This document shows, piece after piece, positions 14,882-62,253 of a stretch of DNA of 64,000 nt. The position numbers and the translations under genes were made by a program. Position 1 is the stretch's first letter. Every line of letters starts with the position of its first letter. The stretch is from a phage, in the NCBI GenBank assembly GCA_025611195.1, contig GCA_025611195.1_4718.1, one strand, 5' to 3'. The notes beneath the pieces were generated by a model. It did no database searches. It had not been told where the DNA came from and saw only the letters and a list, made by a program, of their open reading frames with translations.

Positions 14882-15028
14882 CGTCAACCTCCATCAGATT
14901 GAAAACTATCACGCATAATGCATTTCCCTTTTCTTGTTCTTATCAAGCCGACAGCCGACGGTTTCAGCATCGTCCCTAGCGCGAGAACGACCTTACGTGT
15001 TGTCTATGCCTTATTAATCGCAGGCGTC

Positions 15029-15056
15029 TGTCACCTAGGTAATGTAAGCGTCAAAT
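15029..15056 (-). promoter_or_regulatory. diverged copy B of the promoter-like motif (TACATTAC variant)
   Basis: Minus strand reads ...GACGCTTACATTACCTAGGTGACAG; shares the ATTACCTAGGTGA core; upstream of gene 13445-14881. Confidence 0.35.
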
Positions 15057-15089
15057 TTTTTCTATTTATAACGATAAACGGCATAGAAA

Positions 15090-15119
15090 CCTCCCCCAAC
15101 CCTTACGGGCTGAGGGAGG
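15090..15119. terminator. GC-rich hairpin downstream of the capsid gene
   Basis: cctccc-cc-aa-ccc-ttac-ggg-ctga-gggagg; flanked by CATA (15082-15085) and TATG (15126-15129). Confidence 0.55.
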
Positions 15120-15218
15120 CTGACTTATGTATCACGGTGCCGGATGAATGTCCGGTGCAATGAAACCATCCGCAACGTTGTCGTCAAGAATATCATCCAA
15201 CGAAGCAGCTACGGTAGT

Positions 15219-17441
15219 TCAGTTAGTCTGAACCGGCAGCTTGATGTTTTCAGTGTAGACCTTACGCAGGTTCACAACGTTAATCAGACCCAGCAGCGGG
15301 CAGTTGTTAACGAAGCGGCAGCGAGGCTGAACCATGGTTTCTTTAGAAACCTGACCGTTACGGGTAACCTGAGCAACAGATACCAGTTCCGGTACATACA
15401 GGAACATACCGAAGGTCAGCGGATCCGGAGAACCCTGGATACCACGAGACAGGGTCACGAAGATCTTATCACGCAGCAGGACGTTCGGGTTATCTACAAC
15501 CACGAAGTTGAAGCTTACACCAACGGTACGGAAATCACCATCGGTCTGCAGGAACTGCGGGATGTAGTTGTCGGTTGCTACTACGCAACGCGGTTTCTCA
15601 TCAGCGTTGGAAGACAGCAGCTGCAGAGCTGGCTGATAACCAGACTCGGAGTACATGCGATATGCCATCTCACGAATCACGTTCATGATCGCAGCGGACA
15701 CTTCGGCACGACGTTCTGCAGTGGTGGTACCCTGAACAGATTTCGCCAGGTCCAGATTGATTTCTTCGAACCACGGACGGATCAGGTAACGACCGAAACC
15801 TTCGATCTGGATATCACCGAACTGACGGAAGCGAGAGGTCGCAACCGCTTTCAGTGCATCTTTGTAGCTGAACAGTTTCTCAACCATCAGGTTGTCGAAA
15901 CGTGCGTTAGCAGCTTGGATCAGAACGTCCAGGTCAGCAGCGTTTTCTTCCCAATCCAGCGGACGAGGAATAGAGAACGGAGCCAGCAGGCCGATTGCGT
16001 AACGTTCTTGCTTCATGTTGAAGTCAAGGTGTTTACCACGTTCACGACGGTTGCTGTTGTTACGGCGAATACGCAGTTCGTAACCAACCAGTTTGAAGCT
16101 CAGGTCGTCAGCCAGGTCTTTAAATTCTTGGCTCTTACGCGGCTGTTCGATGTTGTCCTGATCAACCAGGCGATACAGTTCAGCGTTAGCACCGTTAACA
16201 CGCAGACCTGCTTTCTCTACGTTGGAAGAACCGTAAACTTCGATAGCCAGCTGAGCAGCAGATTTCGCATCGATGATGTCCTGCAGCGCTTCAGCTTTCG
16301 CGCCTTTAACGTCAACGGTGTTCTCATCAACGAAGATGGAGTGGGTGTCGAACGCCAGGGTCATTTTGCGGAAGTCGCCTTCCAGGGATTTCTGGAAACC
16401 GTTGGTAATCAGACCGGATACGTCGAACGGAACGTAAGAGGTCTTGCTGTGCTTGGCTGATTTGATTTCCACCAGGATTTTGGTCAGCGTGATCTGAGCA
16501 TCCAGCGCGTCGGTGTTGTCGCTGTAACCGTTAGCCAGAATGCTATCGTCTTCAGCGATACCGATCATGTCGATCAGTTTATCAACAGCCAGGTAAGACG
16601 TTTTGTAAGTTACGCCTTTGATCTCGATGTCGCGCGGAGCAACGATAGTTTTGTCAACGAAGTACTGCGCGTTAGCATCGTCAGCACGATAGATCGGATG
16701 CAGATCGGTCACGTCGTTGGACAGAACGTCGTTGTACATGAACGCATCCAGCAGCGGACGACGTACCCAATCAGCCGGAGTACCGTCAGCGTTACGACGC
16801 AGGTGGTTGAACACCAGCGGACGACGGAAAGATACATCATAACCGATCTGGTTCGGAGCCAGAACGATGGTGTTGTACAGTTCGTTACCCATGCGGCTCA
16901 GACGAGAAGCCTTCACGTTGAACACAACGGAGTACGGCATCATGTCACGCAGTTCTTTCTGGTCGTAGGACAGCTGAACCAGTTCTTCAGATTCGCAACC
17001 GCAGGAATCAGCAGCCATCATGACGAAGTTAGAGCTGTCAACTTCACGGCCAGACGGAGTGGTGCTGATGTTCATGGAACGTGCTTGTTTAGCATATTCC
17101 ACCGGGTTGCCATGAGCCAGCATGATCAGTGCTGCTGCACGAGCCTGCTGTGCGTTCATGGTGAACAGCTGTTCTTCAATACGCTGCTTCTCTTCCGGAG
17201 TGGTGGTTTCGAAGCCCAGCATGGACAGAACCGGTTCTTCTGCTTTACGGATGTCGCTGCTGAAGCTCTTAACATCCATATCGTTAACCAGTTTGTCCAT
17301 GGATTTGAAATCAACCTTAGAAGCAGATTCCATAGACAGGAAGGTGTTCTCCAGACCTTTGTCTGCTGGTTTGCTACCATTAGCGGTCAGGAACTGGCGA
17401 GTGGCCGCGACCTGTTGGCTAAGAAGGGTTTTATCATTCAT
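15219..17441 (-). CDS. putative major capsid protein (740 aa, phiKZ-like size class)
   Basis: AAAGGA SD before ATG 17441; codon usage strikingly different from neighbours (CTG, CGT, GGT, AAC, ACC, TTC dominate), consistent with very high expression. The antisense track ORFs 15144-16460 and 16698-17444 are by-products of that bias. Confidence 0.55.
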   Translation of the reverse strand: MNDKTLLSQQVAATRQFLTANGSKPADKGLENTFLSMESASKVDFKSMDKLVNDMDVKSFSSDIRKAEEPVLSMLGFETTTPEEKQRIEEQLFTMNAQQARAAALIMLAHGNPVEYAKQARSMNISTTPSGREVDSSNFVMMAADSCGCESEELVQLSYDQKELRDMMPYSVVFNVKASRLSRMGNELYNTIVLAPNQIGYDVSFRRPLVFNHLRRNADGTPADWVRRPLLDAFMYNDVLSNDVTDLHPIYRADDANAQYFVDKTIVAPRDIEIKGVTYKTSYLAVDKLIDMIGIAEDDSILANGYSDNTDALDAQITLTKILVEIKSAKHSKTSYVPFDVSGLITNGFQKSLEGDFRKMTLAFDTHSIFVDENTVDVKGAKAEALQDIIDAKSAAQLAIEVYGSSNVEKAGLRVNGANAELYRLVDQDNIEQPRKSQEFKDLADDLSFKLVGYELRIRRNNSNRRERGKHLDFNMKQERYAIGLLAPFSIPRPLDWEENAADLDVLIQAANARFDNLMVEKLFSYKDALKAVATSRFRQFGDIQIEGFGRYLIRPWFEEINLDLAKSVQGTTTAERRAEVSAAIMNVIREMAYRMYSESGYQPALQLLSSNADEKPRCVVATDNYIPQFLQTDGDFRTVGVSFNFVVVDNPNVLLRDKIFVTLSRGIQGSPDPLTFGMFLYVPELVSVAQVTRNGQVSKETMVQPRCRFVNNCPLLGLINVVNLRKVYTENIKLPVQTN

Positions 17442-17590
17442 TGAAAGTATCCTTTACAGAATTAACTTATATAAGTCGGTCGATAGACCATAGCGTACAC
17501 GCGTGCATGCGCCACTATAGTATCAGTAAACACTTACCGTTATTGAGGTTGTGATACAACACTAAAAATGCCGCATAACTTTTCCCTACG

Positions 17591-19887: not shown

Positions 19888-19919
19888 CCCTCCTCCAACC
19901 CGTAAGGGAAGGAGGAGGG
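19888..19919. terminator. GC-rich hairpin between convergent genes
   Basis: ccctcctcc-aa-ccc-gtaa-ggg-aa-ggaggaggg; A10 run 19866-19875 upstream; TATG 19921-19924. Confidence 0.6.
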
Positions 19920-21312: not shown

Positions 21313-21383
21313 TTTACCTTTCTATGTTAGGTGGATTGCGGATAGAAGAATCAATGCATAAACTAATTTAAGTTTGTTAAGGT

Positions 21384-22286
21384 TTACTTAGCCTTTGAGT
21401 TATGCGGACTAACATGCTGTTGTACTCGTTGGATTGTATCGTAGTACGGGTTAGATTGGTTGAACATGTTGTTGTGTGGGGGATAGCCATATGGCGCATT
21501 TTGCCTTGTTGGTGAGAAACCTTGTTGAGAAGGACGGTTTGAATTAACCGCGAGTACGTAGTAAACCAAATTTTGACGGTCGAATGTTCCTTCGTTTTTG
21601 AAAGTGTCGGCGTAGGCTTTTACCGCTGGAGTGAGCCTATCACCATCGGCTGTAATAATTGTACCGTCTGGGTAAACTTCCCGAACGACGCACCATGTTC
21701 CGATGAGAACATCTTTAGGTGCTGTATTACCATATCCGGTTGTAACGGTAAGGTAAGTATCGAACCCTTCAGAACAACAAGGATGACGATAGATGGGTCC
21801 TGTCATTTCCGTTCTATCGGTATCGCTACATTGTTCTATTGAGAGCGATGATGTGTCGGTTTTGAAATTGTCAAATTCTTTCTTTAAGTCGATTACGGGT
21901 TCTTTCGTATAGTACTTCTTGATTGCTTTGACGTAAAGATCAGGAACGGTTGTCAGCAATCCGTTATACCTGATTCTCAGGTTTTCGAGTAATCCAAAGA
22001 TGCTCGCGCATGCCTGTTCGCGAGGTTTTGTAAGATAAGAGATCCCCTCAGGAACGCTGGGATCTTTGAGAAAGAAGATTGCGTTATTGTCGTTGTGCGA
22101 TGCGTTGAAGAAAACGATTGATTCGATATATACGGAGCATAGGCTGTCATTGGCGTCGTCAGATAACACCCAGATGCACTCATCGGTCGTCTTGTTTAAA
22201 AGTTCTGTTTTGTCGACCAAACGTTGTTTCATTGCGAGGAAATGTGCCTGTTGTTCAGCAGTTAATTCACGATAAATAGTGGTCAT
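21384..22286 (-). CDS. hypothetical protein, Cys-containing paralog of 22372-23145
   Basis: AAGGAG SD before ATG 22286 (track start 22364). Shares (G/K)PIY(R/I)HP(C/E)C...YL(T/T)(V/I)T.G...REVYPDG(T/R)I with the upstream gene. Confidence 0.7.
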   Translation of the reverse strand: MTTIYRELTAEQQAHFLAMKQRLVDKTELLNKTTDECIWVLSDDANDSLCSVYIESIVFFNASHNDNNAIFFLKDPSVPEGISYLTKPREQACASIFGLLENLRIRYNGLLTTVPDLYVKAIKKYYTKEPVIDLKKEFDNFKTDTSSLSIEQCSDTDRTEMTGPIYRHPCCSEGFDTYLTVTTGYGNTAPKDVLIGTWCVVREVYPDGTIITADGDRLTPAVKAYADTFKNEGTFDRQNLVYYVLAVNSNRPSQQGFSPTRQNAPYGYPPHNNMFNQSNPYYDTIQRVQQHVSPHNSKAK

Positions 22287-22331
22287 GTTGGGCTCCTTGA
22301 TTACGATAAGGATGATTGCGGTTTTGTGGGT

Positions 22332-22364
22332 TTGGTAGGGCCCTAAACAAAGGAACCCTACCAA
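22332..22364. terminator. hairpin between the two Cys-containing paralogs
   Basis: ttggtaggg-(15-nt loop)-ccctaccaa, 9-bp stem. Confidence 0.4.
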
Positions 22365-22371
22365 TATTAGG

Positions 22372-23145
22372 TTAATCAGGATCGGCGTAGAAATGGTGAG
22401 GATAGCCGGAGTACGATCCTGCGTTACCGGCTATGGATTCTTTCTGGGAATCGACGACGAGCGCATAGAACTGTCGGGAATTTGTTAGCGTTGAGAAATA
22501 AGCGGAAAGGACTTTTTCATTCAATGCATCACAAGGTAGGCAGGTGCGACCGCAAAACGTCACGATACGGCCGTCAGGATAGATCTCACGAATCATTCTC
22601 CACTCACCGATATCCACTGGTGATGGCGCTGCTACACCACCTGTTATCGTTAAGTAACGATCGTACGTGGTATGGCATTCAGGATGAATATAGATCGGCT
22701 TGTTCGTTTCGACAGGTTCCGAAGTATCTCGACGACTAAGAAGCTCAACGACTTCAAGATAAATCGTTGGTAGATCGCGGAGAATACCGGTGCTACGACG
22801 TTTCTTTGTGATTCGCGGACGAATCTCGTTGAGAGCGTATTCGAGCTTACGTTCAGCTTCGTACGCATCGAGTTTTATCAAGCGACCCGGTTCATCGGAA
22901 TGATCCTGAGTTACGTAAACGAAATACGTGTCGCCTTTTGCAGCGTGAAAGATTCGAGCGACCTTAAATGTTTCTACGGTACGATAACCAAGGCGCGATT
23001 GATTTTCCACAGGAGAAAATATCCAATGCCGTCCTTCGTCAGCCTCAACAATTTCGTTGAAACTATCTGTCTGTTCTGGGACCTGGTAGTCAGCCAGTAA
23101 TGTGTCGAGAGCATCATCAGCCAGTTTGATGTAAATATCTGTCAT
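22372..23145 (-). CDS. hypothetical protein, Cys-containing paralog of 21384-22286
   Basis: GAGGA SD before ATG 23145; C-terminal KPIYIHPECHTTYDRYLTITGG...IREIYPDGRIVTFCGRTCLPC. Confidence 0.75.
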   Translation of the reverse strand: MTDIYIKLADDALDTLLADYQVPEQTDSFNEIVEADEGRHWIFSPVENQSRLGYRTVETFKVARIFHAAKGDTYFVYVTQDHSDEPGRLIKLDAYEAERKLEYALNEIRPRITKKRRSTGILRDLPTIYLEVVELLSRRDTSEPVETNKPIYIHPECHTTYDRYLTITGGVAAPSPVDIGEWRMIREIYPDGRIVTFCGRTCLPCDALNEKVLSAYFSTLTNSRQFYALVVDSQKESIAGNAGSYSGYPHHFYADPD

Positions 23146-26584: not shown

Positions 26585-28136
26585 AGCGTTTCACTCCTAC
26601 GATGGTACCGACAAGAATTCTCGGTACGAATAAACTACGATGTTTGAACCATGAAGCGGTTGTTGGGATACGTTTGATGGCTTCGATAAGCCCGATTAGC
26701 GTATAACATCCCCGGCTGTTCTTCTTAGGCCAGTACTTTTTATCTAAACCTAATACCGCAAACAGTTCATCCACCAGATTGGGATAACAACACAACGCTT
26801 CAAGCGTCTCAACCTGTAACTGACTTAAATCTAACAGTATCGCCAGACGAACGTGGTAATCACTCCGTAAGTCTAACTGATCTTTCGCTTCAAGATCACC
26901 AACGTCGGTTAATGTCCACGCGTCTCTTGCGTAGCGGTATTTACCCTTCCAAACCTCAAGGAAAAAAGGAGATTGGTAATGGCATTTTGACCATTCTGGG
27001 TACTCGCGGAACCACCGAACAAGATCGGGATGGAATTCACCTTCTTCGGCTAACGCGTCCAACGTCACCAACAGGTTAGGTTGTTCAGGATCGATAGCGA
27101 GTAGCGCGGTGAAAAGCGTGCTTGATGGAAGCTCGGTCTCCACGCTCGATGGTGGCAGCCATTCATCCAAATCGGGATACCGATACGCTTGAATCGATGC
27201 ACCCTGTTCCGGCAAGAACGAATCACGAAGAATGTCCTGATACTGCACCACCATACCACCACGACGTGCACGGGATTTATCACGCACCGAGAGGCTCGGT
27301 TTGTAAAGGTACTCTTCGGGGAGTATCTGTTGGTGTACTTGAACCGGATACCGTGCTACGATGTGTGTTGGTGTGTCGTACGTGTAACGGTAAGAGAATG
27401 TAGCGTTGTACGAAGAACTGTTCTCATTCTTCTCTGGCTTCGGAGCGTCAGTGAAATCAAATTGACCAGAGATCTCTTCTTGCATTTCCCTGATAACCAA
27501 TTTAACGCTCTTACCGTCACCTGCGACTGTCGTCATGGTGGTTGCACGGTTGTCGAACCCGTCTCTAAGGTATTCGCTGAACTTATCCTTGTAACCCGCT
27601 ATTGCTTCTCGGTGTGTGTGAATAACTTTTAACAGCATGAGAAACTGTGTAGGGATCGCATAGCTGTATTCAGCACTGAGAAACGCGGCAACATGCTGAC
27701 TTGTGAGCAAACGTTTCATGTCGTACCACCAACGTTCGGCGGTGACCTGATCCTCGAACCGTTTGGTGATCTGCATGGTCGCAACCATCGTACTGTAAAC
27801 AGGTACTAGCGATACGCCAAGGTTACGGTCTTCAAATACTGGAAGACTGTTTCGTTTGTAAACGGTATCGTACATGGACGCCTGTTCTTCAGGAACAACG
27901 TTAAGCTCGATTTGGATAAACCCGTCAGCAGGCCCTTTTACATCCTGATCAACAACTTGCGGCGGTTGCTCGTTCGCAGCGCTCATTTTAGCGTGAAGAG
28001 CTTCCCCTCGAAAAAGAATATTCTCGCGATTGTAATCCCACCCGCAAAGCTCGCTGATCTGCCGTAATACCGCGATTGCAACTGGACGTGTTACCGTCGC
28101 GTATACGTCATTGATTTTTCGATCAAGTTTAGGCAT
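26571..28136 (-). CDS. hypothetical protein (about 521 aa)
   Basis: Track start GTG 28163; GAGGA SD then ATG 28136, overlapping the stop of the upstream gene (ATGCCTAA). Confidence 0.8.
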   Translation of the reverse strand: MPKLDRKINDVYATVTRPVAIAVLRQISELCGWDYNRENILFRGEALHAKMSAANEQPPQVVDQDVKGPADGFIQIELNVVPEEQASMYDTVYKRNSLPVFEDRNLGVSLVPVYSTMVATMQITKRFEDQVTAERWWYDMKRLLTSQHVAAFLSAEYSYAIPTQFLMLLKVIHTHREAIAGYKDKFSEYLRDGFDNRATTMTTVAGDGKSVKLVIREMQEEISGQFDFTDAPKPEKNENSSSYNATFSYRYTYDTPTHIVARYPVQVHQQILPEEYLYKPSLSVRDKSRARRGGMVVQYQDILRDSFLPEQGASIQAYRYPDLDEWLPPSSVETELPSSTLFTALLAIDPEQPNLLVTLDALAEEGEFHPDLVRWFREYPEWSKCHYQSPFFLEVWKGKYRYARDAWTLTDVGDLEAKDQLDLRSDYHVRLAILLDLSQLQVETLEALCCYPNLVDELFAVLGLDKKYWPKKNSRGCYTLIGLIEAIKRIPTTASWFKHRSLFVPRILVGTIVGVKRYGAR

Positions 28137-28600: not shown

Positions 28601-31600
28601 TTACTTGTAGGCACCGCAGTGTGCTTTGATGAGGAAAAGCACCGCTTGCATCGGTTTATTGAACTGTTGCCATAACGTCAATGCCGGATGGAACAACCAA
28701 TCTTCCAGGCCAAGAACAATACCGTAGTTAACGACATTATTAACATCGTTCTCAACGTTGAGTTCGCTATCCAGGAATTTATCGATTGAACGCAGGGCCT
28801 GCATGGCGTTGTCAGCAATAAGCCACGCTTCATGCGCTTCACGAGCCGCACGGAGCAATGCTTCCAGTTCGCTGGTGCTGGCTACCGGTAACTCCTCACT
28901 GGTGAGGTCGTCAGAAACCGTAAACTGGCGATTGATACCGGTGTAGATCCACTGCATCAGTTTCGCCGCTTCCTCGTTCGGGTTGTTACGTGTTGTCGCA
29001 TAGGTCGCGCTCATCTTCACGATATGCGTTTCACCAAGATACGCTTTGGACCCAACGCCTTTACGATCGCTGTCTTTCCACGGCTGTACGGTAGCGACCA
29101 TGAGCTTATCCCATTTCTGAATAGGAATACGCTTCAGACCAACAACCGATCCGGCGGATGTTTCGGACTGGTTGCTCTTCCGCACTTCGCCGAGTTCACG
29201 ATCGATAGCAACGATTAATTCACGCGTCATGTTACCAAGCATTTTGATTTCACCCAACGCAGCGATAAGCTTCTTCACATCGGTAATCGGTTCACCACCG
29301 ATGGTAAGATGACGGATGAAACGTTTCAGAATAATCCGTTCTGCTGCTGGGTTACCGCGACGCGCTTTAGCCAACGCTTGCTGTGTTTCGGCGAACAGCT
29401 TATCCCATGGAGCCGTAGCGGCGGTATAGTAACGGTGGTTGGTTTCAATCCAGTTACCGATACGGTTGACCGCACTCTTAACGGTATCCATGAATCCTTC
29501 CATCGCAATTTCGGTAGCTTCGACGTTACCCTGGAAGTTATCAGGACCGATCTCGCGTGCCGCTACCAGAATACCTTCCACCGCACTCACCGCATGCCGA
29601 CCGATAGCCAGATTTCGCTGTGCTTCTTCAGCACGCTCAACGAATTCCACCACTGCAGGATCGTCAACGATTTCCGCCTCGACAACAACACGTGTACCCG
29701 CATCACCTTCCAATGTCTCGATAGTGACAACCGGATCGTTTTCACCAGCAACATCCTGGTACTCTTCCTGTTTGAGTTCGCCGTTATCGGCCGCTGCGAC
29801 AGCGGTGAGTATACGGACGGTAACATCACCGAGTTCTTTCGCAGCGAATCCGTAGACGGTGCATGCTGTTGTCGCAAAGTTCATCAGTGCGCGTGTGCGT
29901 TTAACGATGTAGCCAACGCCGTAGTCACTACCGTTCTTATCGAGGTCGCGGATTAACCGTTCAGCTGTCTCCTGAAGTTGTGTAGCTGCTTTCAGAAGGT
30001 CTTCGTTAAACAGTTTCGTTGACGCATCGATCAGCATATCAACGCTAACGTTAGACGGTACGGCATCATCCTGCTGTTTCATGGCGCTAAGTTCGTCGCG
30101 GAACTTACGGATACCGTCTAAAGCGGCGTCGGCACTATGTCCGAACGCGGCCACGCCAGACATTGTTGTTGCTGTCAGCATGTCCGTATCAGCGTTTGGA
30201 CTTTCGCCTTCTTTAAGATCCTTCAGCTGGTCGAAGAACTTACGGGATGCTTCAGCGATACGTTTGCTGTCTTTTACCGCGTTTACGATTTTATCGACGG
30301 ATTTAGCATCGTTCGCAAGCAGCGTATCGAGTTTGTTCCATTCGACGTTGACTTTCTTTTCATCCGAAGTATTACTCGGTGGAGGAAGCAGTTTCATCAC
30401 CGGTGCTGTGCGTTGTTCTTTGGTCAGCTTGTTGGCCTTCCCTTCGATTTTTTTCTTATTAACACCAAAGAGATTTTTCAAACGCGCCACGAGGGCTTTT
30501 AAGAACTTCGCGACCGCTTCGTAAACCGATTTCAGAATCTGTTTAAAGCGACCCGGCTGCTTTTCCCCGTCTTCCAGATTAAGATCGCTGTTCAGCGCGA
30601 CATCAAGCTGTTTGTACGATTCCATGATGTATTCGTCTTTGATTTCAGGACGAATCTCGAAGCTTTCCATCGGACCTTCAGCCGGACGGAATTCCATTTT
30701 CAGTTCGCCTTGCAGAGTAGGGTCGACAATGGCGATCGCTTCACCCTGACCATCAGCGTTAAAGCGTTCAGCGTAACGAGTACGACGAACAATAACACTC
30801 TTATCCCCATCAAGACGACGTACCACCATGGTGCCAGGAATGTACGGTTGTTCTGTTTCAATGACGGTAACATCTGTCTCACCTTCACCGAGAATAACCG
30901 ATGCGCGCTGTTCAACAACAGGAACATCTAATACACCACGGGCTTCCAGCTCTTGATGAATTTCGAACGACTCTTGTTTCAGATCTTTATCTTCTTCGTT
31001 TTCGTCGTCTTCATCGTCACCTTTGGTGTTTTCATCACCCTCGGTGGTTTTGGTGTCGGCAGCATCAGCATCGGCGTCTGCGTTGGTGGGTTCTTCGGAC
31101 GCAGGTTCGGCGGTGCCGTCCTCGGTAGGCGTTTCATCAGCGTTATCGACATCAACATCGCCTTGCAGTTCTGTTTCCTGAGCAACTGCTTCGGCTTTCT
31201 GCTCGCCGGTATTACCGTCATTAGCGTCGACAGCAGGTTGTTCGTCAGCGACGGTATCTTCAACCTTTTCTACTTTCTCTACGACACGTTTAATCACAGT
31301 GACTTTGATGGGTTCTTCCGTTGTTTTGGTTTCTGGTACCGCATCGGCTACCGCAGGTGCTGTTTCAACAACAGGTTCTGCTTCTTCCGGTTCGACGACA
31401 CTACCTTTAACACCCTCGGTAGTTTCCGCAGGTTGTGCTGCCTGTTCGATTTGTGTTGGGTTGGTTGGATCGATGGCGTTAGCCGCATCCTGAATCTTGT
31501 TCTTCAGGTTATCGCGGTCAGCGTTAACGGTCGGGTCATTGGTCACTTTCGGTGCCGGTGTTTCGGTCGGTGCGTTTGCCGGATACGGGTTCTTCGGCTC

Positions 31601-31984
31601 TTCACCAGGTGCGGTTGGTACCGCGATCAGAACGAACGGTTGAACATCGTTACCGTCTTCCATGGTCACGCCACCGTTGCTCGGTGTGAAACGAATTCGT
31701 AAACTACCATCGATAGGACGGGTCACAATAACAGCACGCACGACATCCTCACCGTTTTCATCCGTGCTACGAATCACACGAACGGCGTCATCAACAGTAG
31801 CCCCTTCCTCGAGCGTATCTGATTCGATCGTCGCTTCGATGCTGTCTGGCCGTGCCGCTGTAGGTAATGCGATCACTTGCTCTTCTTTATCGGTAGAAAG
31901 CGTTGCTTTGACTTCGATGGGTGTATCGCCGCTTTCCAGGTTAAGATGCGACTTACGCATCAGATCAGCTAACGATTTTTTCAT
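28601..31984 (-). CDS. large head-type protein (1127 aa) with acidic low-complexity region; member of the paralogous inner-body-like family
   Basis: AAGAGGA SD before ATG 31984; ~180 aa Asp/Glu/Thr/Ala-rich segment; carries the family helix (PMESFEIRPEIKDEY...RFKQILKSVYEAVAKFLKAL). Confidence 0.8.
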   Translation of the reverse strand: MKKSLADLMRKSHLNLESGDTPIEVKATLSTDKEEQVIALPTAARPDSIEATIESDTLEEGATVDDAVRVIRSTDENGEDVVRAVIVTRPIDGSLRIRFTPSNGGVTMEDGNDVQPFVLIAVPTAPGEEPKNPYPANAPTETPAPKVTNDPTVNADRDNLKNKIQDAANAIDPTNPTQIEQAAQPAETTEGVKGSVVEPEEAEPVVETAPAVADAVPETKTTEEPIKVTVIKRVVEKVEKVEDTVADEQPAVDANDGNTGEQKAEAVAQETELQGDVDVDNADETPTEDGTAEPASEEPTNADADADAADTKTTEGDENTKGDDEDDENEEDKDLKQESFEIHQELEARGVLDVPVVEQRASVILGEGETDVTVIETEQPYIPGTMVVRRLDGDKSVIVRRTRYAERFNADGQGEAIAIVDPTLQGELKMEFRPAEGPMESFEIRPEIKDEYIMESYKQLDVALNSDLNLEDGEKQPGRFKQILKSVYEAVAKFLKALVARLKNLFGVNKKKIEGKANKLTKEQRTAPVMKLLPPPSNTSDEKKVNVEWNKLDTLLANDAKSVDKIVNAVKDSKRIAEASRKFFDQLKDLKEGESPNADTDMLTATTMSGVAAFGHSADAALDGIRKFRDELSAMKQQDDAVPSNVSVDMLIDASTKLFNEDLLKAATQLQETAERLIRDLDKNGSDYGVGYIVKRTRALMNFATTACTVYGFAAKELGDVTVRILTAVAAADNGELKQEEYQDVAGENDPVVTIETLEGDAGTRVVVEAEIVDDPAVVEFVERAEEAQRNLAIGRHAVSAVEGILVAAREIGPDNFQGNVEATEIAMEGFMDTVKSAVNRIGNWIETNHRYYTAATAPWDKLFAETQQALAKARRGNPAAERIILKRFIRHLTIGGEPITDVKKLIAALGEIKMLGNMTRELIVAIDRELGEVRKSNQSETSAGSVVGLKRIPIQKWDKLMVATVQPWKDSDRKGVGSKAYLGETHIVKMSATYATTRNNPNEEAAKLMQWIYTGINRQFTVSDDLTSEELPVASTSELEALLRAAREAHEAWLIADNAMQALRSIDKFLDSELNVENDVNNVVNYGIVLGLEDWLFHPALTLWQQFNKPMQAVLFLIKAHCGAYK

Positions 31985-37257: not shown

Positions 37258-38583
37258 TTACTGCTGTGCTGCGTCAGCCGGTTTCTCAGCCGCCTGGCCG
37301 CCGTACTCTTTCAGCATTTTAGCAGCGCCGTCCAGGACAGCGTTACCTGCCTGAACACCGTATTTCATCAGACCAGTCTGCGGGTTCACGTAGCAGGAAC
37401 GTGCGTCTTTCAGTGCAGACAGTACAGCTTGAACACGCTGTTTTTCCTGAGCGGAAACTTCGCCTTTCTTAGACAGATCAGCTTCCATATCGTCACCGAA
37501 TTTAACAGCGTCTTTGAAGCCCTGGGATTTCTTACCGATGTTGCCTTTCAGCGCCAGCAGTTTGTCAGCCAGTACTTCAACACCGCTAACCGCAGCGGCC
37601 AGCTGATTCAGGGACAGGACGGTAGCTTCAACTTCTTTTGCTTCACCGGAGCGTTCCCAGGTTACTTTACCGTCGTTGGTTTTGAAACCCCAACCTGCCG
37701 GGCCAGCAACATCTGCGATTGCCGGTGCGTTCAGTTTATCAGCGTACTCGGTGTGAGATTTAGCAACAACGGTGTTGACGAATTTATCAGCACGGTCGTC
37801 AGCAGCCTTCATTGCTTTCTCGAAGGTGTCAGCGATTTTGGTCGCACCGGTAACCAGATCGTCGCCACCGATGTAACCTGAAATGCCGCTACCCAGGGTA
37901 ACTTTGGCATTTTTAGCAGCGCCTTTACGTTTGGCAATCATTTCTTTCAGTTTAGCAGCGCGTGCTTTCAGTTTGGTTGCGCCGTCGAAGATACGATCCA
38001 TGAACTTCACGAAGGTTTCCCAGGAAGTTTTCAGGAAGTTCTTGATGGTTGCCCACAGTTTCTGCCACCATTTTTGTTCTTCCAGGAAGATCATGTTGGT
38101 TGCGTCGTAACGGGAAGCGGAACCACCGAAGCTTTCGAAGGACGGCATGGTTTCCGGCAGTTTGAAACCGATAGTACCACACAGGCGTTTCAGGTTACGC
38201 ATGTGTTCCTGAGCGGTTTGTGCAGACATACCACCGTCTTTTAGGTAGCTTTCGGTTGCAACAACGGTTTCCGTCAGTTCGTCCATGGCTTCGTCCATGG
38301 CTTCTGCGGTTTCGTCGTCTTTTGCAATTTCGATAACAACAGCATCAACCTGCTCGATATCGCCACGAACTTCGATAGCCAGTTCGGTTTCAGCTGCGGT
38401 ATCTTCAGCGATTTCAGCGCGTTCGGTCAGTTCAGCTACAACGGTTTCATCTGCTGCTGCTGCGGCATCAGCTGCCGGTTCTGCTTCAACGGTTGCCGCT
38501 GCATCTGGATCGATCTCAGCAGCCAGTTGAACCAGCTGTGCGTTAGATGGATTTGCGACAAGACGATCAAAAATAGAAGGCAT
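37258..38583 (-). CDS. inner-body-like paralog, highly expressed (host-optimised codons)
   Basis: AAAGGAAAC SD before ATG 38583; Ala/Glu-rich N-terminal ~150 aa with many A-x-E sites; codon usage like the capsid gene; motif ESFGGSASRYDATNMIFLEEQKWWQKLWATIKNFL. Confidence 0.8.
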   Translation of the reverse strand: MPSIFDRLVANPSNAQLVQLAAEIDPDAAATVEAEPAADAAAAADETVVAELTERAEIAEDTAAETELAIEVRGDIEQVDAVVIEIAKDDETAEAMDEAMDELTETVVATESYLKDGGMSAQTAQEHMRNLKRLCGTIGFKLPETMPSFESFGGSASRYDATNMIFLEEQKWWQKLWATIKNFLKTSWETFVKFMDRIFDGATKLKARAAKLKEMIAKRKGAAKNAKVTLGSGISGYIGGDDLVTGATKIADTFEKAMKAADDRADKFVNTVVAKSHTEYADKLNAPAIADVAGPAGWGFKTNDGKVTWERSGEAKEVEATVLSLNQLAAAVSGVEVLADKLLALKGNIGKKSQGFKDAVKFGDDMEADLSKKGEVSAQEKQRVQAVLSALKDARSCYVNPQTGLMKYGVQAGNAVLDGAAKMLKEYGGQAAEKPADAAQQ

Positions 38584-38608
38584 AATTTGTTTCCTTTACA
38601 ATAAATTG

Positions 38609-38651
38609 CACATTAGCTAATGTGGCTTAAGTGGACCGTTAGCCCACTTAA
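38609..38651. other. two adjacent hairpins upstream of the highly expressed 37258-38583 gene
   Basis: cacattagctaatgtg (perfect 16-nt palindrome) and ttaagtgg-accgttagc-ccacttaa. Confidence 0.4.
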
Positions 38652-48374: not shown

Positions 48375-51179
48375 TTAAGCTAATTTACCGAAACCGGCTT
48401 TCTGTAGTTTCTCGTTGATGATTTTCGCTTCAGCGAAGACGTAATCGCGGTAGGCGGTCACTAACGCATCCACACGTGAACGCAAGGCTTCTTCGAAGCT
48501 ATACCACGCTGCGATTTCACGAATCTGTGCGTTGATATAATCAACGGTTGAGCGAAGCTCGGTTGCGTTTTCTTGCGGGATGGCTTTCACCTGGCGAGCA
48601 ACGTCATTTAAACGACGGAACTGTGTTTCGATTTCTTTAAACTTACTGTCGGCAAGTTTGCTGAATTCGTCACCGGAACGGGTAAATAACAGATAGCTGT
48701 TGCCGTCAAGTGCGGTCGCTAACTGCTGAAGTACGTTGGTGTCCGGATACACAGGAGTACCGCTTTGCAATACTTTCTCACCGAATTCCGCGAAGTCCTT
48801 CGGCGGTAAGTGTGCAGACGTTGTCAACTCGTTGAAACGGAAAGTCAGCGAATTATCATAAAGCATCCGGTACGCTTCCATACCCTGTTTCATGGTACCA
48901 GCCAGGTTAGCCAGACGCGGAGCAATCTCACCTTCTTTAGCGCGTTTCTGATCTTCTAACGCCCCTTCGAGTTCTTTACACTGGTCATTCAGATACACGA
49001 TACGATCGGGACGCAGACGACGCATCTCACGAAGAATAGTATCCAGCTTACCTTCCTGGAAATAACCTAACGTTAAAGACGTACACGCTTGCTGAAGACG
49101 ATCGAACACCGGTAAGGTCACCATCTCTTTACGGATACCATCAACAATCGCAGAAACAGCCGAAAGTTTCTGTTCGGTGGTTAATGGAGCGTCAGAGACC
49201 GACTTGCTGGGCGCGCCAACAACGTTACGCATTGCGTCGGTATCCTCGGTTTTATCAACCTCTTTACGAACGTTCTCATCAGGAACATAAACGTTCGCGT
49301 TACGTTTCGCCTGCTTGATGGCGTCGTTGGCTGCTTTTTCGGTGGCCGCTACACTATCGGCACGTTTCTTCAAGAGTTCAATAATCCAGAGCAACAGACG
49401 ACGAATCGCTGTATAGGCTGTCGTGATGATGACACCGATAACAGCCATCTTCATGATACCGAACGATTCCATGGTCGGCTCTAACGCCCGGTCTGGCATA
49501 TACCGTTCACGCAGTTCCAGATAGATCTGCTCATCTGGTTTGCTGATCTCACCACGATGCGAAGTCCGATAGATGGCTTCGTCAATCTCAACAAGATCTT
49601 TACGTGCTTGACGGTCTGTTTCGGTCAAATAAGCGCAGCCGGATACGTCGTCTTCAAAACTTTCGAACTTAAAGAAATCGACAACCATCTTGGCAAGCGC
49701 CTCTTTCTTAGCAGGATCGAGCGTCTTCGCATCCTCTTTTTGCTTATCCATTTTTTCCTTGAATTTCTCTTTATAGTCATTCAAGGGTTTTACCGCTCTT
49801 GCCTTCAACGCGTTATAGATAGCTTTCCACTCATCGTCACGTTCGAGGACAATGAAATGGTTCTTGAGTTCGAAAGCACGATAGCGTGCAACGAGCTGTT
49901 CTACCTGAATGTGAGCGAGTTGGATATCCATTAACCAACGCGACATCGCCGAGATCAAACGGCTATAAGCGAACAACGTTTGGTAGGTTAACTTCATGTA
50001 TGTTTCATACAGCTCAATATCGCCGCTCTGAATATTGGCTGTTGGATTCATTTCCTTTGTTGCCCTGAAGACCTGTTCTGCTTCTCTCAGCGTCTTTTCG
50101 AACTTAACGTCATTAAACGCAGTGAATGGTTCAGCCAACTCATGCATTTTATCGTGGAGTTCGCGGATCCAAGATTCCTTGCTGTCGCGGATGGTGTTTT
50201 CATCATGGAGCGCAGTCTGATGTTTTCGTACCCATTCTTCCACGATATCAGCAGCTGCAACCACCTGGACACGATCTGAAATCAATGGGACAATCGCGTG
50301 AAGTGCCCCAACACATTCTGGCGTGTCCCAGTGTTTCTGGAGGTCACCACGGAAACGGTCGATGTCTTTTAAGGTGGTACCTAAGTCAAGGAAAGTGCCG
50401 CCATTATGACTCATTTGTGCGACAAGATCGGCAAATACCTTTTGTTTTTCGATGACAAAAGGAACCATCCGCATAAGCCATTCAGCAGTTGCTTTAGCCT
50501 TTTCTTTCAGATTTTTGTCGGCGATTTCTTTAAGGTTAATCGCGCTACTGTATCCTGCAAGTTCGTTGTAGACGTCGTTAACCGTCATCTCTTTATCCAA
50601 CATTTCTTTGAAACGTGGATAATCTGCACCTAACGCGTCGATGACTTCTTGGATGATGTCGTCTGTGGTGGCGATAAATTTATTTGTGCCACCGTAATGT
50701 TTCCAGATTTTCTGTAGCATCTTCTTAAAGAATTCGAAGACGAATGTCCAGATACGCTTGATGAGTTCCCAGACTTTCTTCGCGCCATCGACAAACAGTT
50801 TAGAGACCTTGGCAACGAATCCTTCCTGTACCAACTCAACGCCGTTACGTGATGGGATTTCCGTGAAGAAAGCATCTGGCAGTTGTTTCGGGAACGCATC
50901 GCCAAGACGCATACGTAGTTCAGGTACATCGGCACGAGAGATACCGCGTGTTACTAACTGTTCGTGAAGACGAACATTTTCTTCACCAGAGGCTACGAAT
51001 TCGTTAACGTCAAATGAAACCAGTTCTTGATCTTCGGTGGTGACGACGCTTGAACCATCACTGGTTTGGATGTCTTCGTCAGGGAACGCCATCAGCATAC
51101 CGTGACGCATTTCAACCACTCCGTAATCGGTTGCTAAACCGAATTCGTTGTGATCGGGAGTAATAACTGGGATACTCAT
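48375..51179 (-). CDS. large inner-body-like family member (934 aa) with one hydrophobic helix
   Basis: ATG 51179 overlaps upstream stop; motif VELVQEGFVAKVSKLFVDGAKKVWELIKRIW; hydrophobic segment MAVIGVIITTAYTAI. Confidence 0.75.
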   Translation of the reverse strand: MSIPVITPDHNEFGLATDYGVVEMRHGMLMAFPDEDIQTSDGSSVVTTEDQELVSFDVNEFVASGEENVRLHEQLVTRGISRADVPELRMRLGDAFPKQLPDAFFTEIPSRNGVELVQEGFVAKVSKLFVDGAKKVWELIKRIWTFVFEFFKKMLQKIWKHYGGTNKFIATTDDIIQEVIDALGADYPRFKEMLDKEMTVNDVYNELAGYSSAINLKEIADKNLKEKAKATAEWLMRMVPFVIEKQKVFADLVAQMSHNGGTFLDLGTTLKDIDRFRGDLQKHWDTPECVGALHAIVPLISDRVQVVAAADIVEEWVRKHQTALHDENTIRDSKESWIRELHDKMHELAEPFTAFNDVKFEKTLREAEQVFRATKEMNPTANIQSGDIELYETYMKLTYQTLFAYSRLISAMSRWLMDIQLAHIQVEQLVARYRAFELKNHFIVLERDDEWKAIYNALKARAVKPLNDYKEKFKEKMDKQKEDAKTLDPAKKEALAKMVVDFFKFESFEDDVSGCAYLTETDRQARKDLVEIDEAIYRTSHRGEISKPDEQIYLELRERYMPDRALEPTMESFGIMKMAVIGVIITTAYTAIRRLLLWIIELLKKRADSVAATEKAANDAIKQAKRNANVYVPDENVRKEVDKTEDTDAMRNVVGAPSKSVSDAPLTTEQKLSAVSAIVDGIRKEMVTLPVFDRLQQACTSLTLGYFQEGKLDTILREMRRLRPDRIVYLNDQCKELEGALEDQKRAKEGEIAPRLANLAGTMKQGMEAYRMLYDNSLTFRFNELTTSAHLPPKDFAEFGEKVLQSGTPVYPDTNVLQQLATALDGNSYLLFTRSGDEFSKLADSKFKEIETQFRRLNDVARQVKAIPQENATELRSTVDYINAQIREIAAWYSFEEALRSRVDALVTAYRDYVFAEAKIINEKLQKAGFGKLA

Positions 51180-51616
51180 GCATTCTCTCCTTGCAGTGCG
51201 TTAGCGAAAGCTGTTGCAAGTTGCGCAACCAGTTTCGGATCAACGCCTTCGATAACGTCGGGCAGCCCCGCGGTTTCTTGGTCACGAACAGCAGCTGCTA
51301 ATAACAGCATGGTTTCAGGTGCTGTCGGCTCATGCACCATGCGGTAACGCAGGCACCAGAAGTAGCGGGCAACGTCTAACGCATCAGCCAACCCAATAAC
51401 CAGCACCTTGTTCAGCTTATCCAGCCCTTCACGGATTTTAGGGAGATGTTCACGAACGAAAATGCTATCTGCGGTCAGATCTTCTTTTTCAGCGAATACC
51501 GGCATGCTGTAACCAGCGATGTAACCTGCGGCAATACTCAATGCACGGGTCTGTTGTTCGGCCGGGAAATCACGTACCAGGTCTTTCAGCTGAACGGCGA
51601 AATCAGAAATATTCAT
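51176..51616 (-). CDS. hypothetical protein (146 aa)
   Basis: Coupled (ATGA overlap) to the downstream gene. Confidence 0.65.
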   Translation of the reverse strand: MNISDFAVQLKDLVRDFPAEQQTRALSIAAGYIAGYSMPVFAEKEDLTADSIFVREHLPKIREGLDKLNKVLVIGLADALDVARYFWCLRYRMVHEPTAPETMLLLAAAVRDQETAGLPDVIEGVDPKLVAQLATAFANALQGENA

Positions 51617-55485: not shown

Positions 55486-55495
55486 TGATGCTCCT

Positions 55496-56005: not shown

Positions 56006-56009
56006 TTCT

Positions 56010-56462: not shown

Positions 56463-56492
56463 TGTTTCTTTTCCTGTGTAGTCGGTATACAA

Positions 56493-61614: not shown

Positions 61615-62253
61615 TTATGCAAAGCGACGCATGTAACCTGCCAGATAGTTACGCGTATCGAAGTAGGCGATTTCAGGAATTGCGATATTAAGGTCGATAG
61701 CGCGGATTTCAACTTGGCGACGGCTTTCATCATAGATCGCATCCATCAGACGCAGTACTGTCAGGAAAGCCATGCGGGTATGGTAGTCCAGCGGCATGTT
61801 ATCGATACCGCGATACAGATAACGGTTTGCGTTAAACGCCCCTTCACTGTTATCTTTCCAGATCTTCAGAATATCAGCAAAAGCGGCGCGGAAAACCTCA
61901 GGATTATCCACATCCAGTAACGCACGGAAGGCAGACATCAAAGATCGCTGATGACGGATCAAGGACTGCGGCGTTTGCGGCATGGTCGGACCCATTTCTT
62001 CCGCATATTTCTGGAACGGGGCGACCAGGGTTGCGGCACGAGAAGCAACGATAGAAACAGCAGGCGATTCTTTCACCGCTGGTTTCGCAGGCTTTTCTTC
62101 AACGGTGGTTTCCTTCTTCTCAACAGCAACCGTTTCCGGTTGTGCTACAACGTTGTTGGTCGGAGCAGCAGTCGCACCATTTTCCACGGCGGTCTCTACT
62201 GCTGTAATCTTTTCTTCCATTTGTGCGGAACGTTGGTCTTTATTCTTGCTCAT
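61615..62253 (-). CDS. hypothetical protein (212 aa) immediately downstream of the RNAP beta-prime fragment
   Basis: Ala/Glu/Val-rich N-terminus then a helical domain; no recognised motif. Confidence 0.7.
   Translation of the reverse strand: MSKNKDQRSAQMEEKITAVETAVENGATAAPTNNVVAQPETVAVEKKETTVEEKPAKPAVKESPAVSIVASRAATLVAPFQKYAEEMGPTMPQTPQSLIRHQRSLMSAFRALLDVDNPEVFRAAFADILKIWKDNSEGAFNANRYLYRGIDNMPLDYHTRMAFLTVLRLMDAIYDESRRQVEIRAIDLNIAIPEIAYFDTRNYLAGYMRRFA

Follow-up and report, generated by a model that had tools for sequence, protein, structure and literature searches.

Why should two phage genes be written in the codons of the most heavily translated genes of the host, when none of their neighbours is? 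The question arises from a 64,000-nucleotide stretch of Goslar-like jumbo-phage DNA (the window), 95-97% identical to Escherichia phage Goslar, in which an earlier note had singled out a putative capsid gene and a second gene as sharply host-optimised; the boundaries that it gave for both are exact (Table 1). The capsid assignment is borne out by: (i) the PF25620 (PhiKZ_MCP) profile, matched over positions 2-635 of 635 (1.6e-217, 724 bits, cut-off 27), (ii) PDB matches that are solved major capsid protein chains, including phiKZ gp120 (8y6v, 3e-55), and (iii) 97.5% nucleotide identity to Goslar gp041, which is annotated as major head protein. With a full-length profile match above the curated cut-off and a likeness to solved capsids, the protein is a member of PF25620; it also matches phrog_3231.

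The second gene encodes an internal head ('inner body' or ejection) protein and is 96% identical in nucleotides to Goslar gp058. Its product matches PF12699 over positions 6-385 of 387 (64.1 bits, cut-off 27) and the phrog_5750 internal head protein at 4e-8, and a PDB search returned no relative. A PF25618 (PhiKZ_gp91) gene at 38648-39310 directly adjoins it, the neighbours of Goslar gp058 are annotated as similar to phiKZ ORF087-089, and the gene sits in a head-gene block syntenic with phiKZ gp87-gp97, as stated for Goslar (bioRxiv 10.64898/2026.04.21.720040). Goslar gp58 is packaged at ~2,150 copies and injected into the host (bioRxiv 10.64898/2026.04.21.720040); its 96% identical counterpart here is presumably packaged and injected as well.

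Table 1. Coordinates of the genes, gene starts, leaders and antisense open reading frames (ORFs) considered in the window.
Feature	Position	Strand	Remarks
Major capsid protein gene (Goslar gp041 orthologue)	15219-17441	-	740-aa ORF
Internal head protein gene (Goslar gp058 orthologue)	37258-38583	-	441-aa ORF, PF12699
Capsid gene codons 2-16, unoptimised	17394..17438	-	Local CAI 0.38; two of the gene's three CTT
Internal head gene codons 2-16, unoptimised	38536..38580	-	Local CAI 0.42
TGTAAAGGA, with Shine-Dalgarno-like AAGGA	17450..17458	-	8 nt upstream of capsid start codon
TGTAAAGGA	38592..38600	-	8 nt upstream of internal head protein start codon
Spurious antisense ORF opposite capsid gene	15144..16460	+	438 aa; codon-aligned antisense frame, offset 0
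Second spurious antisense ORF opposite capsid gene	16698..17444	+	248 aa; codon-aligned antisense frame
Spurious antisense ORF opposite internal head gene	37429..37881	+	150 aa; codon-aligned antisense frame
Second most abundant PF12699 paralogue gene (Goslar gp053 orthologue)	28601..31984	-	CAI 0.51, ~330 copies
Vertex-binding-complex protein gene (Goslar gp066 orthologue)	51176..51616	-	CAI 0.53
Capsid decorator gene (Goslar gp077 orthologue)	61615..62253	-	CAI 0.57; role and LFQ abundance from Table S4

Codon adaptation (CAI) was scored with weights from 30 E. coli K-12 genes (ribosomal-protein genes, tufA and fusA; 4,894 codons). The capsid and internal head genes reach CAI 0.800 and 0.772 (robust z 6.1 and 5.6), compared with a median of 0.39 and a range of 0.26-0.57 for the other 50 genes of the window; thus, the two genes do depart from the average as the earlier note had claimed. 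The reference E. coli genes, when scored against themselves, span 0.56-0.84, and both phage genes lie above their median of 0.68. Nc is 30.3 (capsid) and 30.4 (internal head) against about 41-59 (~50) in the neighbours, and the synonymous codon tables differ from the rest of the window in G-tests (p = 9e-81 for the capsid gene, 5e-36 for the internal head gene), with no difference between the two genes (p = 0.05). The RSCU values of the two genes correlate with those of E. coli ribosomal-protein genes at r = 0.967, versus 0.651 for the other 50 genes, and every amino-acid family is moved toward the host optimum. CTG makes up 96% (capsid) and 94% (internal head) of the Leu codons and TTC has a share of 97% and 93%, respectively, while GGA/GGG, AGA/AGG/CGA/CGG, ATA, TTA/TTG/CTC, AGT/TCG, ACA and CCC are absent from both genes. 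The earlier wording that the favoured codons are used almost exclusively is accurate for CTG and TTC and too strong for CGT, GGT, AAC, ACC and GAA, whose shares are 62-93% and which give way almost solely to the second-best codon (CGC, GGC, ACT). The two genes are indeed unlike every neighbour, although the neighbours form a graded series, in which the homologues of gp077, gp066, gp053 and gp038 hold intermediate CAI values of 0.50-0.57.

Such a preference could be mimicked without codon selection, by mutational bias, by bias associated with strand or transcription or by amino-acid composition, given that heavy transcription can leave mutation signatures and composition can inflate CAI. The CAI, Nc and G-test comparisons, however, are made within synonymous families, and when the amino-acid sequence was kept and codons were resampled from phage-average usage, a CAI of 0.388 +/- 0.017 was expected for the capsid gene and one of 0.434 +/- 0.022 for the internal head gene, which places the observed values at z = 24.6 and 15.5. 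GC3 is likewise not the cause, because that of the internal head gene (0.482) equals the window average and GC3 alone predicts an Nc of 59-60 for the two genes, versus the ~30 observed. The bias is, thus, explained by neither amino-acid composition nor GC3. Same-strand neighbours are free of it, and no single mutational direction fits preferred codons that end in G (CTG, CCG, CAG), T (CGT, GGT, GCT, GTT, TCT), C (AAC, TTC, ATC, ACC, TAC) and A (GAA, AAA). Synonymous divergence, considered below, is also lowered rather than raised, and a mutational or compositional origin of the pattern is very improbable.

The level of adaptation follows the abundance of the proteins, as measured in the orthologous phage. 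Label-free mass spectrometry of Goslar virions yielded 1,615 copies of gp41 and ~2,150 of gp58, where copy numbers are rough (+/- 50% according to the authors; bioRxiv 10.64898/2026.04.21.720040) and describe the virion of Goslar, whose orthologues are 96-98% identical, not that of the phage studied here. By residues per virion, gp41 and gp58 rank first and second and together comprise ~38% of the listed virion protein, which supports, through the Goslar orthologues, the proposal that the two genes encode the two most abundant virion proteins; in terms of copies only, gp23 (~2,144 copies, 180 aa, CAI 0.72, encoded outside the window) equals gp58. When codon adaptation was compared with virion abundance, as the earlier note had advised, CAI tracked LFQ abundance with a Spearman coefficient of 0.60 (105 Goslar proteins, p = 2e-11) and copies x length with one of 0.56 (Goslar virion proteins). 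The top five CAI values among all 247 Goslar genes belong to gp041, gp058, gp214, gp023 and chimallin; four of these products belong to the six virion proteins of highest abundance; the fifth, chimallin (CAI 0.69), is the non-virion protein of the nuclear shell, so that the bias is not restricted to virion proteins. A similar gradation is evident within one family: of six PF12699 paralogues, only the ~2,150-copy gp58 is strongly biased, while gp53 (~330 copies) has a CAI of 0.51 and gp54-57 (50-70 copies) have values of 0.30-0.47. Exceptions to the trend include gp158 (~926 copies, CAI 0.42) and gp208 (~384 copies, CAI 0.37).

Synonymous sites of the two genes are still under purifying selection. 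Compared with Goslar, the two genes have 78 synonymous differences where 134.6 are expected (7.0% vs 12.1%, Fisher p = 8e-8). Families with the strongest preference show the largest deficit, foremost Leu (1/98 in the two genes vs 204/1414, or 14.4%) and also Thr, Pro, Asn and Gln, and the synonymous changes that did occur are mostly between co-preferred codons. This signal rests on two genes and the contrast among amino acids in one pairwise comparison (window versus Goslar); over the full set of genes, CAI and third-position divergence are uncorrelated (Spearman 0.13, p = 0.43). Divergence differs among genes for other reasons too, such as mosaicism.

Phage genomes are mosaic, several nearby genes differ sharply from Goslar, and the two genes have a slightly higher GC (0.51 vs about 0.47), all of which would suit their recent acquisition, by horizontal transfer, from the host or a phage of other codon usage. 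Both are, however, core chimallivirus genes with phiKZ-family domains (PF25620 and PF12699), the block is syntenic with homologues of phiKZ ORF087-089, and the capsid protein is ~25-31% identical to any non-Goslar relative, none of which is a host gene. The average GC3 of the internal head gene likewise speaks against foreign origin, as does the recurrence of the bias in the orthologues of the Salmonella phage SPN3US. Since the bias is graded by abundance genome-wide rather than block-like, the two genes do not form a horizontally acquired compositional island, and a foreign origin is highly unlikely.

Translational selection on very abundant proteins is, by contrast, very probably the cause of the codon bias in the two genes. 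No tRNA genes were found in the window (ARAGORN) and there are none in Goslar; therefore, all phage proteins would be made from the host tRNA pool. Together with the capsid protein, the dominant internal head protein would account for about two fifths of the amino-acid residues of the virion. Codons read by abundant E. coli tRNAs (such as CTG, CGT/CGC, GGT/GGC, ACC/ACT, AAC, TTC, GAA, CCG and ATC) may shorten ribosome occupancy and reduce errors in such heavily translated genes, and because these genes are heavily translated, selection at their synonymous sites could be strong enough to prevail over mutation and drift, which it would not be in low-copy genes. The predicted outcome is a codon adaptation graded by protein abundance, in which the capsid and internal head genes rank highest. 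The match of preferred codons to abundant tRNAs is established knowledge for E. coli (Ikemura 1981; Sharp and Li 1987). We infer that the trait under selection is the efficiency and/or the accuracy of elongation, acting through tRNA abundance.

A different target of selection would be the mRNA itself, with codons that tune its stability, structure or RNase resistance late in infection and a match to the host codons that is partly incidental or arises through codon-optimality-dependent mRNA decay. Efficiency, accuracy and mRNA-level effects are inseparable from sequence alone, and the unoptimised first ~15 codons of both genes indicate that local constraints on the mRNA do act; the first ~15 codons of highly expressed bacterial genes are likewise unoptimised. 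The two genes also have a leader in common: the 9-mer TGTAAAGGA has just two matches in the window, where 0.38 are expected, and other genes for abundant proteins have a generic AAAGGA/AAGGA Shine-Dalgarno only. Two matches were reached in 4/100 shuffles, and this weakly unusual leader is not claimed as a specific element. Scans around both genes for sigma-70 promoters and intrinsic terminators gave nothing above shuffled expectation, although these phages use their own RNA polymerases and a sigma-70 scan says little; an Rfam search of the window returned no RNA families. The account based on mRNA is countered by the even course of the bias past the 5' end of both genes (sliding CAI 0.69-0.89), by the shift of every amino-acid family to the ribosomal-protein codon set and by the use of that same set in unrelated SPN3US sequences, a pattern that tRNA matching predicts and that a model of structure or stability does not require. 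Selection at the level of the mRNA is, thus, an improbable main cause.

The long ORFs opposite the two genes appear to be a by-product of this selection. In the codon-aligned antisense frame, only TTA, CTA and TCA would be read as stops; all three are non-preferred and would be nearly purged by selection for the favoured codons, leaving the antisense strand open. The three codons together occur once in the capsid gene (of 740 codons) and twice in the internal head gene, and the ORFs are long because these codons are nearly missing from the sense genes. The longest one ends at the reverse complement of the sole TCA of the capsid gene (codon 328), which forms the single antisense stop at 16458-16460, and the ORF opposite the internal head gene is likewise terminated by a TCA read in reverse complement (codon 235). 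Were the ORFs real overlapping genes, their coding needs could shape the sense codon usage, and the two opposite the capsid gene do far exceed what phage-average codon usage generates (longest open run of 107 codons on average and 267 at most in 1,000 simulations). The codon usage of the capsid gene itself, however, simulates still longer runs (mean 601 codons). In the capsid gene, the sense frame counts 41 synonymous and 11 non-synonymous substitutions relative to Goslar and the antisense frame 5 and 47; therefore, the antisense frame is not coding. The sole antisense stop opposite the capsid gene is at codon 413 here and at codon 611 in Goslar, a Pfam search of the three ORFs gave no matches, and the ORFs opposite the capsid gene are without annotation in the Goslar RefSeq record. 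Neither purifying selection nor the keeping of ORF boundaries is seen, and an overlapping gene is extremely unlikely. The proposal that the bias generates long spurious antisense ORFs is, thus, confirmed by the codon depletion, the simulated lengths and the substitution pattern. The ORFs are like the 'shadow' antisense ORFs known opposite strongly biased genes, in the codon-aligned frame and in the depletion of TTA, CTA and TCA, with no difference, and the capsid gene, with one such codon in its full length, is a clean case.

Comparison with known systems places the two genes within a familiar class. A tblastn search of the phage collection with the internal head protein matched only Goslar and, weakly, one Pseudomonas phage; therefore, the annotated internal head proteins of SPN3US were used for comparison. 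The top three CAI values among 46 SPN3US genes are those of the major capsid protein gp75 (0.77), gp53 (0.74) and gp54 (0.71), which are also the three proteins most plentiful in its virion (PMC5694885). In this distant phage as in the window, the ranking is, thus, headed by the same two protein families, and the pattern has recurred independently, since the capsid proteins are only ~26% identical. Both of the PF12699 paralogues that co-dominate in SPN3US are optimised, whereas in the Goslar lineage a single paralogue dominates and it alone is optimised.

That host-preferred codons are raised in phage structural genes is an established general phenomenon (Lucks et al. 2008, PMC2266997, which cites earlier observations on lambda and T7). 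That study shares with the present analysis the higher CAI of high-copy structural genes against a host set, the control for amino-acid sequence and GC3, translational selection as explanation and host inference as a proposed use. It differs in treating structural and non-structural genes as two classes in 74 smaller phages, whereas the bias described here falls on very few genes of a 237-kb-class jumbo phage, is comparable with measured per-virion copy numbers and extends to the non-virion chimallin. A literature search found no paper on codon bias specifically in Goslar or chimalliviruses. The codon bias of the genes for ribosomal proteins and elongation factors in E. coli, reportedly described by Ikemura in 1981 and by Sharp and Li in 1987, involves identical preferred codons, a like strength (0.56-0.84, compared with 0.77-0.80 in the phage genes) and an unoptimised start. 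Those are cellular genes selected through the growth rate of the cell; the genes considered here are viral and expressed only late in infection, and burst size or speed would be the trait in question.

The direction of the bias also bears on the host. Of 79 ribosomal-protein references (Enterobacterales, Orbales and Pasteurellales), those of Raoultella, E. coli, Kosakonia, Kluyvera, Salmonella and Citrobacter fitted best, and codon usage cannot separate these genera. The closest relative of the phage, Goslar, infects E. coli. The E. coli/Salmonella-like host suggested earlier is, thus, upheld at the level of the family (Enterobacteriaceae) and not at that of the species. Hosts are not told apart by the other 50 genes, whose correlation with the host set is only r ~0.65; a few jumbo-phage genes carry almost the entire host-specific codon signal, and host prediction for metagenomic phage contigs should therefore focus on those for the capsid and internal head proteins.

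Real as it is, the finding is an ordinary one: it is a textbook signature of translational selection, a clean quantitative example of a known phenomenon more than a discovery, and it raises no new biological question. For annotation, it warns that long ORFs opposite strongly biased genes are artefacts. For the biology of the phage, the codon bias singles out the abundant member among several paralogues and merely confirms a heavy investment in one PF12699 protein. Whether the pattern extends to nucleus-forming jumbo phages in general, with extreme optimisation limited to the few genes whose products exceed ~850 copies per virion and to the gene of the nuclear-shell protein, and with CAI as a predictor of abundance, is about an even bet. 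If so, CAI would serve as a sequence-only pointer to the dominant paralogue and to abundant uncharacterised proteins, for which Goslar gp214 and gp23 and the non-virion gp097, gp024, gp045 and gp174 would be candidates, and it could indicate the host family of uncultured chimalliviruses. The presence of one optimised and five unoptimised PF12699 paralogues would then reflect a lineage-specific turn to one internal head protein as the dominant one.

Codon usage in the capsid gene and the internal head gene is sharply host-optimised amid a genome of average codons, as an earlier note had claimed. Scored against 30 ribosomal-protein, tufA and fusA genes of E. coli K-12 (4,894 codons), the two genes have a codon adaptation index (CAI) of 0.800 and 0.772, respectively, compared to a median of 0.39 (range 0.26-0.57) for the other 50 of the 52 window genes scored. 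These values exceed the median of the host reference genes scored on themselves (0.68, range 0.56-0.84) and lie far above ordinary E. coli genes of the same locus (0.22-0.53). With amino acids fixed and phage-average codons, the expected CAI is 0.388 ± 0.017 (capsid gene) and 0.434 ± 0.022 (internal head gene), and the two genes are clearly off the genome average by this resampling (z = 24.6 and 15.5). Nc is 30.3 and 30.4, compared to ~41-59 in the neighbours, and RSCU of the two genes combined correlates with the E. coli ribosomal-protein set at r = 0.967 (other 50, r = 0.651). The synonymous codon tables differ from the remaining window (G-test p = 9e-81, capsid gene; 5e-36, internal head gene) and are indistinguishable from one another (p = 0.05). 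CTG supplies 94-96% of Leu codons, compared to 22% in the remaining window, and GGA/GGG, AGA/AGG/CGA/CGG, ATA, TTA/TTG/CTC, AGT/TCG, ACA and CCC are absent from both genes. The claim that preferred codons are used 'almost exclusively' holds exactly for CTG and TTC and is somewhat generous for CGT, GGT, AAC, ACC and GAA, which make up 62-93% of their families, the rest being second-best codons. Since the GC3 of the internal head gene (0.482) equals the window average and the Nc predicted from GC3 is 59-60, the bias is not explained by GC3. Codons 2-16 are unoptimised in both genes (local CAI 0.38, capsid gene, and 0.42, internal head gene; elsewhere 0.69-0.89), which matches highly expressed bacterial genes, where codon optimisation is relaxed or counter-selected at the 5' end. 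An identical leader, TGTAAAGGA, also lies 8 nt upstream of the ATG in both genes. It has no further copies in the window and is only weakly unusual (two matches were reached in 4 of 100 shuffles); similar Shine-Dalgarno regions of the form (T)AAAGGA(A/T) precede other genes for abundant proteins.

The only megablast match of both genes is Escherichia phage vB_EcoM_Goslar (NC_048170.1, host E. coli), with full-length identities of 97.5% (capsid gene) and 96.1% (internal head gene). Goslar ~28.2-90 kb is collinear with the window at a typical identity of 94-97% (gene-by-gene blastn), and the window therefore derives from a close but distinct Goslar relative, a nucleus-forming jumbo phage of the Chimalliviridae. 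The capsid gene is orthologous to Goslar gp041 ('major head protein'), and its product, the major capsid protein (MCP), is also similar to major capsid protein chains of known structure and to phiKZ gp120 (8y6v). In one PDB entry the chain of a near-identical capsid protein begins at residue 158 and has 583 residues, which suggests that residues 1 to ~157 form an N-terminal propeptide cleaved on maturation; codon bias is equally strong in this region, the first ~15 codons excepted. The internal head gene is orthologous to Goslar gp058 and adjoins homologues of phiKZ ORF087-089 and a gene for a vertex-binding protein (PF25618, PhiKZ_gp91). Its product matches PF12699 at 64 bits (cut-off 27 bits; profile positions 6-385 of 387) and has an acidic, Ala/Glu-rich N-terminal region; none of its relatives has a structure in the PDB.

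Coordinates of features in the window and in Goslar
Feature	Genome	Position	Strand	Description
Capsid gene	window	15219-17441	-	740 aa; PF25620 (PhiKZ major capsid protein), 1.6e-217, whole profile; phrog_3231
Internal head gene	window	37258-38583	-	441 aa; PF12699 ('phiKZ-like phage internal head proteins'); phrog_5750 'internal head protein'
Leader, capsid gene	window	17450-17458	-	
Leader, internal head gene	window	38592-38600	-	
Antisense ORF	window	15144-16460	+	codon-aligned antisense frame
Antisense ORF	window	16698-17444	+	codon-aligned antisense frame
Antisense ORF	window	37429-37881	+	codon-aligned antisense frame
Intergenic region	window	14888-15218		~330 nt, downstream of capsid gene
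32-nt element	window	19888-19919		
32-nt element, example copy	Goslar	27746-27777		
32-nt element, example copy	Goslar	71990-72021		
Indel region	window	~21361-23141		
ORF	window	21384-22364	-	326 aa
ORF	window	22372-23145	-	257 aa
gp056 homologue	window	34540-35829	-	low-copy PF12699 paralogue
gp067 homologue	window	51646-52965	-	phrog_2767
DNA polymerase ORF	window	53187-54938	+	continuous, 583 aa
Polymerase junction	window	near 54682-54702		
Polymerase insertion	Goslar	81186-82966		~1.78 kb; NUMOD1/HNH endonuclease gp069
Polymerase similarity resumes	Goslar	82967-83293		
Small-gene cluster	window	55036-59107	-	
Cluster gene	window	55036-55485	-	no blastn match in Goslar
Cluster gene	window	55496-56032	-	no blastn match in Goslar
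Cluster gene	window	56537-56965	-	no blastn match in Goslar
Cluster gene	window	56972-57367	-	no blastn match in Goslar
Cluster gene	window	57400-58167	-	no blastn match in Goslar
Cluster gene	window	58628-59107	-	no blastn match in Goslar
gp214	Goslar	201334-201813		outside window; CAI near 0.7
gp023	Goslar	16862-17404		outside window; CAI near 0.7
gp246	Goslar	171003-172898		outside window; CAI near 0.7

The Goslar virion is described by a cryoEM model and by quantitative label-free mass spectrometry, with 1,615 copies of gp41 (MCP), ~2,150 of gp58, ~2,140 of gp23, ~865 of gp214, ~330 of gp53 and 50-70 each of gp54-57 (2026 preprint, bioRxiv 10.64898/2026.04.21.720040). The Goslar genome was rebuilt from six annotated stretches, and all 247 annotated CDS were intact ORFs and were scored. 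The five highest CAI values are those of gp041 (0.80), gp058 (0.78), gp214 (0.72), gp023 (0.72) and the nuclear-shell protein chimallin, gp246 (0.69), followed by a gap to 0.57. Among 105 Goslar proteins transcribed from Table S4, CAI correlates with LFQ abundance (Spearman 0.60, p = 2e-11). The earlier note had assigned the bias to the two most abundant virion proteins, and this holds by residues per virion (modelled copy numbers used where known), in which MCP ranks first (~21% of the listed total) and gp58 second (~17%). Strong optimisation among the window's six PF12699 paralogues is confined to the abundant one (gp053 homologue, 0.51; gp054-057 homologues, 0.30-0.47). An exception to the trend is Goslar gp158 (~926 copies, CAI 0.42). 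Goslar gp097 (CAI 0.56), gp045 (0.50) and gp174 (0.49) are absent among the Table S4 virion rows transcribed, and gp024 (0.57) has only ~76 copies there; these four may be abundant non-virion proteins.

Synonymous codons at conserved amino acids were compared between the window and Goslar. The two genes differ at 7.0% of such codons, compared to 12.1% in 40 other genes, and 78 synonymous differences are observed versus 134.6 expected by per-amino-acid rates (Fisher p = 8e-8). The deficit is strongest where preference is near absolute (two genes versus others: Leu, 1/98 versus 14.4%; Thr, 4.9% versus 15.4%; Pro, 5.3% versus 20.5%; Asn, 1.7% versus 9.1%). There is no deficit at Asp, Gly, Arg and Ser, the families with two acceptable codons, and the changes are mostly GAC/GAT, GGT/GGC, CGT/CGC, TCT/TCC and among GCN codons. 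The within-gene contrast among amino acids controls for gene-to-gene differences in divergence, which otherwise mask any genome-wide trend. The reduced synonymous divergence is evidence for ongoing selection.

Long antisense ORFs in the two genes are artefacts of the bias, as proposed beforehand. Stops in the codon-aligned antisense frame arise only from sense TTA, CTA and TCA, and there is one such codon in the capsid gene (TCA, codon 328) and two in the internal head gene, compared to ~3.2 per 100 codons in typical genes. The longest open run simulated with phage-average codons averages 107 codons, with a maximum of 267 over 1,000 simulations; when the gene's own codons are drawn instead, the average is 601, and 412 are observed. 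Real antisense genes are contradicted by the capsid gene changes relative to Goslar, which are 41 synonymous and 11 non-synonymous in the sense frame and 5 and 47 in the antisense frame, by the lone antisense stop, which is at a different codon position in Goslar, and by the lack of Pfam matches and of Goslar RefSeq annotation on the antisense strand.

The codons of the two genes were also scored under the ribosomal-protein codon frequencies of possible hosts (80 ribosomal-protein operon loci retrieved from Enterobacterales, Orbales and Pasteurellales, 79 ranked; distant hosts such as Pseudomonas lie outside this panel). The codons fit best with Raoultella, E. coli (ranked second of 79), Kosakonia, Kluyvera, Salmonella and Citrobacter (r 0.96-0.97, mean log-likelihood -0.715 to -0.73); the fit falls through Erwiniaceae, Pectobacteriaceae and Yersiniaceae, and r is 0.70-0.84 for Morganellaceae and 0.25-0.58 for Pasteurellaceae and Orbaceae. 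Almost no host-discriminating signal is present in the other 50 genes (r 0.41-0.81, top values in AT-rich taxa). Thus, the suggested E. coli/Salmonella-like host stands at the level of Enterobacteriaceae, to which the signal points, while E. coli is not separable from its sister genera.

Several further loci are of note in the comparison with Goslar. The polymerase ORF is split in Goslar by a segment that resembles an inserted intron or homing endonuclease, absent from the window; in that case gp068 of Goslar (499 aa) probably represents just the first exon. The two ORFs of the indel region have no Goslar counterpart and no Pfam or PHROG matches; Goslar has only ~90 bp between the flanking homologous segments. 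The gp056 homologue is a local divergence hot spot or allele exchange, with 76% nucleotide identity to Goslar (third-position difference 0.40, first/second-position 0.15) between flanking genes that are ~95% identical. A second divergent allele is the homologue of gp067, a virion protein of ~48 copies in Goslar, which is 96-97% identical only over the first ~100 nt and ~76% over the 3' ~270 nt, the middle having no nucleotide-level alignment. The small-gene cluster, with the lowest CAI in the window (0.26-0.44), is a variable accessory region. Downstream of the capsid gene, the intergenic region shares 98% identity with Goslar, more than the local average; a simple scan found no terminator-like hairpin and Rfam gave no match. 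The 32-nt element belongs to a repeated terminator-like family, with identical copies at several positions in Goslar that carry the annotation of a putative transcriptional terminator.

The pattern recurs in a distant relative, Salmonella phage SPN3US, in which MCP is only ~26% identical. Of 46 genes in its 38-88 kb region, the top three by CAI are MCP (0.77) and two annotated internal head proteins (0.74 and 0.71), the same families as in the window. These proteins, gp75 (MCP), gp53 and gp54, are reported to be the three most abundant of the SPN3US virion (PMC5694885). High CAI in MCP and internal head genes is therefore recurrent in enterobacterial chimalliviruses and no peculiarity of the window.

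What the earlier note observed is borne out with high significance, and its reading is essentially right; classical translational selection is the best-supported explanation. Specific tests contradict each of the rivals horizontal acquisition, mutational or strand bias and amino-acid composition. The window and Goslar both lack tRNA genes, and decoding therefore relies entirely on host tRNAs. The most heavily translated genes would use codons of abundant host tRNAs, which would save ribosome time and reduce errors. An mRNA-level component may also be present, and sequence would not decide which of speed, accuracy and mRNA-level effects dominates. Translational selection on phage structural genes was established by Lucks et al. 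2008 (PMC2266997), and a literature search found no paper on codon bias of this kind in Goslar or chimalliviruses specifically. The phenomenon is well known and the genes are already characterised; the two genes provide a new and very clean instance of it.
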